From Staphylothermus hellenicus DSM 12710 (lineage in GTDB: Archaea > Thermoproteota > Thermoprotei_A > Sulfolobales > Desulfurococcaceae), in the NCBI RefSeq assembly GCF_000092465.1, contig NC_014205.1:510001-542000 (forward strand): a DNA stretch of 32,000 nucleotides, in the 5' to 3' direction. How positions within the stretch are numbered: position 1 is the stretch's first letter; each line of letters starts with the position of its first letter. Positions 13,866 through 15,187 of this stretch are shown here, in pieces. The translations under genes and the position numbers were made by a program. The notes under the pieces were generated by a model. It did not search any database. It saw only the letters and a list, made by a program, of their open reading frames with translations, and was not told the DNA's origin.

Positions 13866-14645
13866 CTATAATCCCTTACCATAACGGGATAATTGTTTCA
13901 ATGCTAGTTCAACATATTTCCTCATGCTCTCAGGCAATCCATGCATTGATGAAGCTAGGAATCCAAGTATGATCATTTTTGTTGCTTCTTCCTCGCTTAA
14001 ACCCCGTGATTGTAGATAGAATAGTTGTTCACTGCTTATTTTACCAATGCTTGCTTCGTGTGTTAAGAAGGTATCATCAACTTTTGTCTCTAGAATAGGT
14101 TCAGTTCTATAGGTGCCCTTTCCTAAAACTAGCCCGTTACATTCAATATGTCCTCTTGTCTTATTAGCATTGCTTTTAATCATAAGCCTTGTATTCATGT
14201 TTCCATTTTCTTCGACAACTCCTCTAGTAGTTATTAATCCACCCGCCCTCTCCCCGTTTAACTCGATTTCTATAGAGCTGTTAACATTTGTATTTCTATG
14301 AACATATGTTGCTTCATGCACATCTACTTGTGAATTCCTATATGCTTTTATACTAGTTGATAATCCAAGAGCTCTTACAGGGGATAGTTTAACATAGTAG
14401 TAGCTATAAGTAGAGTTTTCGCCTACAACACCTATTGTTTTAGAACCAACACTTACATATGGTGCCCAATTATGTATCATTAAGCTGGTTAATCTACTAT
14501 TTTTCCCTATTCGAAACAGTGTAATAGCAGAATGTGCTCCTTCTGGAACTATTGCTGCGCATCCCTTGGCTATGAAAGCTTCTGCATTATCTCCTATGTT
14601 TACAACATTAATTATTCTCTGAGTAAACCGTTTGTCCCTACCGTG
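13866..14645 (-). CDS. SufB/SufD-family Fe-S assembly protein, C-terminal ~260 codons (segment 2 of an interrupted gene)
   Basis: The frame is open from just after the TGA at 14646-14648. It reads ..FTQRIINVVNIGDNAEAFIAKGCAAIVPEGAHSAITLFRIGKNSRLTSLMIHNW.. (beta-helix). It ends with the family signature THEASIGKISSEQLFYLQSRGLSEEEATKMIILGF. The ORF track shows only the part from the internal Met (14480). Confidence 0.8.
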   Translation of the reverse strand, partial: HGRDKRFTQRIINVVNIGDNAEAFIAKGCAAIVPEGAHSAITLFRIGKNSRLTSLMIHNWAPYVSVGSKTIGVVGENSTYSYYYVKLSPVRALGLSTSIKAYRNSQVDVHEATYVHRNTNVNSSIEIELNGERAGGLITTRGVVEENGNMNTRLMIKSNANKTRGHIECNGLVLGKGTYRTEPILETKVDDTFLTHEASIGKISSEQLFYLQSRGLSEEEATKMIILGFLASSMHGLPESMRKYVELALKQLSRYGKGL

Positions 14646-14861
14646 TCATTCTGTGTATTTCTGTGTTTATTTTTTGTCCACGGTAGGGACTTCCACCTCA
14701 CCCATAGTCCTCTATCAAGGACTGTGGGGTCATGAGTGGCTGTCGAGGCCAACGGCACGGGCCTCCCATCTACAGTGAACCCCCATGGGTCTCGGAGCAT
14801 TGCTCCCATCAACCCACAGAGACATAGATCAATACAAGAAAATATAATCCGAAATACTTAA
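14622..14861. other. GC-rich hairpin-dense intervening element inside the sufB/D-like gene (intron or non-autonomous mobile element)
   Basis: It lies between the direct repeats CAGAAAAT (14862-14869) and CAGAGAAT (14614-14621), read on the minus strand. The core 14679-14820 is 84/142 G/C by hand count. There are four consecutive hairpins (see findings). Confidence 0.7.
14634..14690. repeat. Perfect 12-bp inverted repeat with a 33-nt AT-rich loop
   Basis: GTCCCTACCGTG at 14634-14645 pairs with CACGGTAGGGAC at 14679-14690. The loop holds a tandem TTCTGTGT(A/T)T decamer and a T6 run on the plus strand. Confidence 0.9.
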
Positions 14862-15187
14862 ATTTTCTGCTCCTTAGATCTTATTATAAAGCATGCATAT
14901 ATGGGTATAGATGATCTAATATTATCGGGTACTTTAATATAGAATCCCGCTGTGGCCTTATATAAAAGGTCTTTATTAAAGCCAAGCTCGGATGTAATCT
15001 CATGTATTTCTTTCCTGTACAAATCATTGTTCAAAGCTTCACTTAGATCTATCAATATTATGCCGTTCTTCCTTAGGTAGTTATAATAGTATCCTTTCAG
15101 TATTTCATCATTGATTATTCCAGCTGCTGTTAGATTTGGATCTGGAAGATTTGCTTTTTCAATATATTCTTTTAGGTCTGAACTCAT
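14858..15187 (-). CDS. SufB/SufD-family protein, N-terminal 109 codons (segment 1 of the interrupted gene)
   Basis: It ends ..GFYIKVPDNIRSSIPIYACFIIRSKEQKI then TAA. This is where SufD-type proteins enter the beta-helix. It is in a different phase from segment 2. Confidence 0.7.
   Translation of the reverse strand: MSSDLKEYIEKANLPDPNLTAAGIINDEILKGYYYNYLRKNGIILIDLSEALNNDLYRKEIHEITSELGFNKDLLYKATAGFYIKVPDNIRSSIPIYACFIIRSKEQKI

Follow-up and report, generated by a model that had tools for sequence, protein, structure and literature searches.

Our analysis of 32,000 nucleotides (nt) of the genome of Staphylothermus hellenicus DSM 12710 (NC_014205.1, positions 510,001 to 542,000 of the forward strand) revealed a gene of the SufB/SufD family, sufBD, that lies on the minus strand and is cut in two by a 242-nt insert at positions 14630-14871. 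The whole stretch is here referred to as the window, and positions are window coordinates unless a relative is named. The 5′ part of the gene (14872..15187, minus strand), delimited from the list of open reading frames (ORFs) and by blastn, comprises codons 1 to 105 and the first base of codon 106. The 3′ part (13866..14629, minus strand) runs from the last two bases of codon 106 to the stop codon and encodes the SUFBD_core domain (PF01458; E value of 9e-37). The reading frame of the 5′ part enters the insert and stops at a TAA codon at 14860-14858, and the outcome is a 109-amino-acid (aa) ORF followed by a 3′ remainder in a different frame. Both halves had been proposed in an original prediction made from the window sequence: the N-terminal ORF, 15187-14858, was found in the ORF list, and the second frame, said to be open from 14645 to 13866, was borne out as the one that carries PF01458.

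The extent of the insert was established by comparison with the empty site of Staphylothermus marinus (locus L002). In blastn, the 5′ part showed 81% identity to S. marinus positions 2891-3316 and the match ended at 14872, while the 3′ part showed 90% identity to positions 3317-4136 with a match beginning at 14629. The insert is missing from S. marinus, and the flanking window bases 14872 and 14629 match neighbouring S. marinus bases; judged from this alignment, the junction of the insert with sufBD is unambiguous. Removal of 14630-14871 yields a coding sequence of 1,080 nt and 359 codons, matching the S. marinus protein in length, and the correct join, AAG G/GG TTT (..RSKGFTQRII..), leaves no gaps, with ..IIRSKGFTQRII.. 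in the joined product aligned to ..IIGSRGFTQRII.. in S. marinus. The best homologue of the joined protein is the uninterrupted 359-aa protein of S. marinus F1, with 88% identity over 100% of the length, and the anticipated colinearity with SufB/SufD orthologues was thus confirmed. The order of the neighbouring genes (isochorismatase, SufBD, M28 peptidase and the beta subunit of phenylalanyl-tRNA synthetase) is identical in both species. The G+C content of the window is 36.6%, compared with a published value of 36.8% (PMC3236042). The exact boundary that had been predicted did not hold. A deletion of 248 nt had been proposed in place of the 242 nt given by the S. marinus comparison, its join (..SKEQRII..) produces a 2-residue gap against all ten homologues in our alignment A1, and the 8-nt direct repeat CAGAAAAT/CAGAGAAT that was taken as the boundary is present but represents a 7-of-8 chance match.

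The ratio of nonsynonymous to synonymous changes between sufBD and its S. marinus counterpart was 0.15, compared with 0.08-0.09 for two neighbouring genes. This low level of decay fits a recent insertion, and sufBD is most likely a recently inactivated pseudogene.

The 242 nt, as aligned to the S. marinus empty site, consist of a 240-nt element (14630-14869, minus strand) and one junction dinucleotide. As the original prediction had stated, the insert is rich in G and C (G+C of 0.60 at 14700-14799 against 0.37 for the window), and its sense strand carries no run of five or more T residues. Within it, three parts of a larger element have been kept: a TATA-like box lies in the left end, about 55 codons remain of a tnpB gene, and the right-end region is complete. 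The left end (CAGAAAATTTAAGTATTTCGG.., 14825..14869, minus strand) contains, at 14862-14855, a box (TTTAAGTA) resembling a transcription factor B recognition element and a TATA box; the TAA codon that ends the N-terminal sufBD ORF lies inside it. From its sequence, this box is a putative promoter for the RNA encoded downstream. The tnpB relic (14669..14830, minus strand; ..LRDPWGFTVDGRPVPLASTATHD..) corresponds to the last codons of that gene and overlaps the segment encoding a structured RNA that is described below.

The insert is present as a single copy within the window. Outside the window, a search with the concatenated spurious ORFs crossing the insert as the query returned one protein, WP_052833671.1 of S. 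hellenicus, annotated as an FAD-dependent oxidoreductase. The last 77 residues of this protein are a translation of the element in the plus-strand reading of the window, that is, antisense to sufBD (tblastn, E value of 7e-10). Its first approximately 165 residues align with homologous oxidoreductases, which run about 60 residues beyond the point where the element starts. By this comparison, a second copy of the element interrupts another S. hellenicus gene, and it does so in an orientation relative to its host gene opposite to that of the sufBD copy. The two copies are at least 10% diverged, with at least 24 differences in 235 positions when the peptide is threaded onto the window DNA. Since an RNA-level intron cannot function in both orientations, whereas a DNA element can, the opposite orientation of the second copy speaks against an intron.

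WP_052833671.1 itself is a chimera of about 165 residues from a truncated dihydrolipoamide-dehydrogenase-like gene and 77 transposon-derived residues. Its host gene also lacks the N-terminal FAD-binding part and is probably a pseudogene as well. Logan contigs of two independent sequencing runs (SRR3925463 and SRR019220; loci L005, L006 and L007) break inside the insert, one contig ending at 14752 and another beginning at 14656. Such breaks at k = 31 would fit a further near-identical genomic copy sharing roughly 14781-14627. ORFs identical to those of the split gene occurred only in the Logan assemblies of two sequencing runs. No S. hellenicus Logan fragments were recovered in the homology search with WP_052833671.1, and a scan of viral contigs gave 0 matches. 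An exact search of a collection of species-representative genomes with the 20-mer GGTGGAAGTCCCTACCGTGG from the insert matched three contigs of unrelated bacteria and no Staphylothermus genome, either because the collection masks the source stretch or because the representative genome differs at the site.

The origin of the insert was revealed by its relatives in metagenomes, which were retrieved with a pattern built from stretches identical in both copies and spanning the invariant GAGGCC..GGCCUC hairpin. Approximately 25 of the 72 pattern matches were true homologues of the insert core, and they fell into two subgroups. In full-length relatives, tnpB is a gene of some 430 codons with the homologous core at its extreme 3′ end. 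In loci L019 and L074, the gene whose 3′ end overlaps the core is an ORF of 432 aa that scores above the cut-off for TIGR01766 and matches guided_TnpB with an E value of 3e-19; tnpB occupies 8017-9315 (minus strand) in L019 and 5584-6882 (plus strand) in L074, and the matches to our RNA model, described below, fall at 8002-8167 (minus strand) and 6732-6897 (plus strand), respectively. The closest relative of the window copy, L027, matches both PF07282 and TIGR01766. Directly upstream of tnpB, L074 encodes an IS607 family transposase, TnpA (NF033518; 142 bits, with the cut-off at 110), and L027 carries the C terminus of a matching IS607 TnpA (53% identity, E value of 4e-15). Hence, both full-length relatives with a visible upstream gene encode a TnpA of the serine-recombinase IS607 type. 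The tnpB relic in the insert matches the C-terminal TnpB ORF of L027 in tblastn (43% identity over 56 aa, E value of 9e-9), and the TnpB proteins of L019 and L074 match the same region of the insert.

In L019 (8017-8167, minus strand) and L074 (6732-6882, plus strand), the tnpB frame is open across nearly the entire segment encoding the RNA, and its stop codon lies about 15 nt from the right end of the element. About 45 C-terminal residues of TnpB (..SDGRPVALASTGTHD..) are in this way encoded by the bases that form the conserved helices. The L074 tnpA gene appears to be split at 4990-5090, where a stop codon following ..KKGKIVA would set the N-terminal helix-turn-helix part off from the resolvase domain, and the transposase itself may be damaged.

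Seven further relatives (L072, L066, L013, L070, L065, L073 and L052) lack tnpB, and a short left end is joined to the conserved region instead. These protein-less copies, which span 8991-9249 in L072, 1985-2265 in L066, 509-787 in L013, 483-763 in L070, 1658-1939 in L073 and 1369-1650 in L052, belong to both subgroups and consist of a left end with a TTTAAATA-type box directly joined to the RNA scaffold. The contigs that bear them range in G+C content from 42 to 64%, and the copies appear to be mostly intergenic, as judged by eye from ORF lists. Their presence in both subgroups and on contigs of such different G+C suggests that guide-RNA-only elements persist and spread and are not one-off deletions. 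Elements in L019 and L061 are 93% identical and have different flanks.

The conserved core encodes a structured RNA. On the minus strand, the scaffold homologue of an omega RNA, also termed reRNA, occupies 14630..14792, folds into four helices and ends in ..GGGACAAAC. Helix 1 pairs 14765-14760 with 14750-14745 (GAGGCC/GGCCUC), helix 2 pairs 14739-14735 with 14697-14693, helix 3 pairs 14728-14722 with 14707-14701, and helix 4 is a perfect 12-bp stem of 14690-14679 with 14645-14634, all on the minus strand. The hairpins that had been predicted at 14745-14765, at 14701-14728 (with its CCACU/GGUGG extension) and at 14634-14690 are all present and correspond to helices 1 to 4 of the conserved family. 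A fourth predicted hairpin, GGGUUGAUGGGAGC-AAU-GCUCCGAGACCC (14787..14815, minus strand), was also recovered by folding. It lies inside the tnpB relic and is common only to the window-like subgroup, in which its stem varies between GGAGC/GCUCC, GGAGC/GCUCU and GGGGC/GCCCU across L065, L072, L066 and L027.

The insert folds much more favorably than shuffled sequence, with a z score of -4.5 on either strand. RNAalifold applied to 18 sequences predicted helices 1 to 3 independently, with compensatory changes in 10 of 18 pairs. We then built a covariance model, R1, with the four helices, and its match in the window spans 14626-14792 on the minus strand with 126.5 bits and an E value of 2e-36. In an alignment of 19 distinct sequences (A6), 84% of the cells were paired and 20 of the 30 pairs changed on both sides; as A6 was fitted to R1, and its helix 4 portion is imperfectly aligned, these counts lean toward structure. 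None of 500 shuffles reached the observed values, and sliding the pairing partners by 1 to 3 columns lowered the paired fraction to 34-44%. On the strength of the independent RNAalifold result and the slid controls, we regard the structure signal as real. Helix 1 is invariant and hence uninformative on covariation, helices 2 and 3 covary strongly, and helix 4 covaries as well, its sequence differing between the subgroups while the stem is kept in each. Since the G-U pairs seen here would be C-A mismatches on the other strand, the RNA strand is the tnpB-sense strand, which is also the sufBD-sense strand.

In all members of the family, conservation stops at ..AAAC plus a dinucleotide (..GGGACAAAC), and the bases beyond are locus specific. 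Known TnpB omega RNAs share this arrangement, comprising the tnpB 3′ end, a multi-helix scaffold, a sharp end at the transposon boundary and variable sequence beyond it (PMC8612924; PMC10690162), and it is an established rule for TnpB that the guide derives from the flank (PMC8612924; PMC10690162). The insert core thus has the anatomy of a TnpB omega RNA, and by analogy the RNA would bind and guide TnpB; the sufBD flank TTTACTCAGAGAATAATTAA (14608..14627, minus strand) would then provide the guide of an omega RNA produced by read-through. We also considered RNase P, H/ACA and C/D RNAs on account of GGAAGUCC, ACAGAA and ACA-like strings. These candidates received no support from Rfam, and linkage to tnpB explains the conservation.

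We next considered the ends. The insert has neither terminal inverted repeats nor a duplication beyond a dinucleotide, and its junctions read TCTAAGG[AG]CAG...ACAAAC[GG]TTTACT. The element entered a run of G residues in sufBD codon 106 and left the junction dinucleotides AG and GG. The left core dinucleotide, AG (14870..14871, minus strand), lies directly before the conserved left-end CAG/CTG, at a place where the relatives have GG; the comparison of left ends covered L072, L066, L013, L070, L074, L028, L073 and L052. The right core dinucleotide (14628..14629, minus strand) is GG, which the IS607 model takes to be the copied target GG. A [GG]CAG..TTAAATA arrangement is common to the protein-less L072, L066, L013 and L070, and the window insert, whose left end reads [AG]CAGAAAATTTAAGTA, shares this motif with them. 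The motif resembles the [GG]CTG plus TATA arrangement of the full-length elements of subgroup ii, which is present as [GG]CTG..ATTTAAATA in the full-length L074 and L028 as well as in the short L073 and L052. The right-end half of the insert is clearly homologous to full-length elements. Beyond the right end, GG follows in the window insert, L027, L072, L066 and L065, TG in two copies and GC in every member of the second subgroup.

The S. marinus empty site, CTAGGGGGTTT, contains a run of five G residues. When AG is counted as the left core copy, the site before insertion becomes TCTAAGG-GG-TTTACT, which has exactly the S. marinus length. A simple 2-bp GG duplication at the observed boundaries was rejected, as it does not reproduce an empty site of that length unless AG is an altered core. 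For one IS607-family TnpA, published experiments demonstrated that a GG is strictly needed at the target, that the motif there is of the TGGG type, and that the left and right dinucleotides of the integration products can differ (PMC10690162). Junctions and target therefore fit IS607 better than the HUH/Y1 model of IS200/IS605 elements.

Collectively, these data indicate that the insert derives from an IS607-family transposon as a miniature element without protein genes, comparable to a miniature inverted-repeat transposable element or a palindrome-associated transposable element (PATE), and that sufBD is most likely broken by it; we assign this explanation a probability of roughly 0.88. The right-end region that the insert retains encodes, in full-length relatives, the structured scaffold that we assign to the TnpB guide RNA. 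One of the two possibilities originally put forward, a non-autonomous element or omega-RNA-like relic that turned the gene into a pseudogene, therefore stands in substance, supported by the homology to the tnpB 3′ end and to the omega RNA, but its assignment to the IS200/IS605 type does not, the family being IS607.

A mechanism can be proposed on this basis. A serine-recombinase TnpA supplied in trans would move the element via a circular double-stranded intermediate that recombines at GG. RNA would be made from the sufBD-sense strand, either from the left-end promoter or by read-through of this strand, which is free of T5+ runs, and would extend beyond ..GGGACAAAC to include the adjoining sufBD bases TTTACTCAGAGAATAA... 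It could then guide a TnpB encoded in trans to an element-free sufBD allele, marked by the G-rich motif followed by TTTACTCAG.., and cutting of this allele would favor retention or re-copying of the element.

Several observations weigh against this explanation. No Rfam 15 family, the curated TnpB- and IscB-associated RNA motifs included, matched the window region, and no Rfam 15 match was obtained in the loci of 12 relatives at the gathering threshold or in L019 in E-value mode. The RNA family is thus uncurated, and the omega RNA label rests on position, structure and analogy. Neither tnpA nor tnpB occurs anywhere in the 32-kb window, the insert included; hence the window copy can only be a non-autonomous derivative, any partner acting in trans is hypothetical, and the element might be no more than an inert leftover. 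At the left, the junction reads AG and not GG, which calls for a G-to-A change after insertion or for a non-canonical product. For the insert's own subgroup, no full-length left end is in view, as L027 is cut by the contig end. Finally, sufBD bears no decay besides the insertion, and a gene that is still expressed would look alike.

Among the alternatives, the one that survives best, although we consider it improbable, is a PATE of the IS200/IS605 type that is moved as single-stranded DNA by an HUH/Y1 TnpA, the hairpins being DNA recognition structures. Elements of this kind would share the lack of inverted terminal repeats and of a target duplication, the insert has a subterminal hairpin near its right end and a weak A+T hairpin at its left end, and TnpB genes occur in both IS families. 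In both relatives with a visible upstream gene, however, TnpA is the IS607 serine recombinase and not a Y1 enzyme, and insertion took place in a G-run with GG/AG dinucleotides, a target of the IS607 kind. In addition, the helices covary in distant relatives and have G-U pairs on one strand only, behavior expected of an RNA.

A slightly less probable alternative holds that the protein-less, promoter-bearing elements are maintained as stand-alone guide-RNA genes for TnpB proteins encoded elsewhere, with the sufBD copy perhaps being removed at the RNA level and the gene remaining functional. The removal might proceed through omega-RNA processing or circularization followed by ligation of the flanks, a truce like that of an IStron but without a ribozyme; circular omega RNAs without bulge-helix-bulge (BHB) motifs have been reported in archaea (PMC12558985). 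RNA-level removal of the insert, taken by itself, is likewise given only a slim chance: our searches turned up no splicing signal, and the second copy of the element lies antisense in its host gene.

The other possibility in the original prediction, an intron in an archaeal mRNA, did not survive the analysis, given the missing BHB, the absence of a group I or II match and the opposite orientation of the second copy. In its archaeal form, a BHB intron would be excised by the tRNA-splicing endonuclease and the exons rejoined by RtcB, leaving sufBD functional, and some observations do favor it: removal of 14630-14871 restores a perfect 359-codon frame, the insert is structured and sense oriented on a strand without T5+ runs, and sufBD is otherwise undamaged. 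We nevertheless hold it to be very unlikely. The central helix cannot form, since CUAA and ACAA, the tetranucleotides preceding the two cleavage sites, cannot pair. A survey of all site pairs in 14500-15000 found neither a canonical nor a relaxed BHB at 14872/14630 or at the in-frame alternative 14870/14628, and cofolding of both junction regions gave nothing BHB-like. Moreover, the insert is homologous to the 3′ ends of transposon tnpB genes, its second copy is antisense to the host gene, and the protein-less relatives look mostly intergenic by eye.

Equally hard to credit is an IStron-like element, in which the transposon ends would double as splice sites of a self-splicing ribozyme that removes the element from the host mRNA. 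Fusions of group I introns with IS607 and IS605 elements do exist, with boundaries that coincide with the splice sites (PMC10690162), and removal of our insert restores the exact frame. Against this, no group I or group II intron was matched even at an E value of 10: Rfam searches of the window at gathering thresholds and of 14500-14950 with E values up to 10 returned no intron family, and the insert region gave only chance-level snoRNA and miRNA matches. Furthermore, the 5′ ~60 nt are A+U rich and promoter-like rather than ribozyme-like, 242 nt is too small for a group I core plus an omega RNA, and the second copy is oppositely oriented. The weakest proposal, a free-standing host noncoding RNA gene between two separate genes for Suf fragments with no mobile element involved, could appeal to a G+C-rich structured RNA in an A+T-rich hyperthermophile and to the TATA-like box upstream, but is refuted by the one uninterrupted 359-aa gene at the syntenic S. 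marinus site, and the tnpB 3′-end homology, the tnpB coding relic in the segment and another copy in a different gene speak against it as well.

Elsewhere in the window, a single 25-nt match to the Rfam CRISPR-DR27 repeat was found at 22750-22774 on the minus strand (38.3 bits, above the gathering score). With three mismatches allowed, the window contains no second copy, and the match therefore constitutes an orphan repeat and not an array. No tRNAs were found in the window, and a paper on split tRNAs in Staphylothermus (PMC3218864), followed as a lead on repeats, proved not to be relevant.

Our results dismiss an insert that could easily have been taken for a second example of an intron in an archaeal mRNA, and they illustrate that a mini-transposon bearing a guide RNA can mimic an intron by being structured, G+C rich and frame-restoring upon removal. 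They also point to an uncurated omega-RNA family that is tied to IS607-type TnpB genes on thermophile metagenome contigs, that apparently uses a G-rich adjacent motif and that may be of interest for mining thermostable RNA-guided nucleases. The occurrence of protein-less copies on diverse contigs suggests that elements reduced to a promoter-like left end and a scaffold can persist. Two annotation problems come to light as well: sufBD is split, and in one RefSeq protein the final 77 residues derive from a transposon RNA scaffold.

The comparison with known systems places the insert among several of them. It resembles the IS607 transposons, exemplified by the Clostridium botulinum element (PMC10690162), in that it lacks terminal inverted repeats, is inserted at GG in a G-rich motif with junctions that may mismatch, and has a structured RNA that lies at the 3′ end of tnpB and extends no further than the right end, while its full-length relatives carry a serine-recombinase tnpA together with tnpB. 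Unlike that element, the window copy lacks both genes, measures 240 nt, contains no group I intron, resides in a hyperthermophilic archaeon and encodes an RNA of a family not in Rfam 15. PATEs are protein-less elements of the IS200/IS605 type whose omega RNAs act with a TnpB supplied in trans (PMC10055086), and the insert shares with them a left and a right end, the lack of a protein gene, a guide-RNA scaffold and the need for a transposase and TnpB from elsewhere. It differs in that the published PATEs are of the HUH/Y1 IS605 type with DNA hairpin ends, whereas the insert is IS607 derived and, as judged from its sequence, retains a TATA-like archaeal promoter in its left end. As an RNA, it is similar to the omega RNAs, or reRNAs, of ISDra2 (PMC8612924) and of the archaeal SisTnpB1 (doi 10.1101/2023.03.06.531077), which overlap the tnpB 3′ end, have a multi-helix scaffold of about 160-210 nt, end at the transposon right end and draw the guide from flanking DNA; neither its sequence nor its helices are related to the curated motifs, and its predicted adjacent motif is G rich (GGGG) and not TTGAT or TTTAA. 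Lastly, like the intron of the archaeal cbf5 pre-mRNA (PMC2738675), it is an intervening sequence in a crenarchaeal protein gene whose frame is restored by exact removal, but in contrast to that short, BHB-flanked intron, it has no BHB, is transposon derived and has another copy that lies antisense to its host gene.

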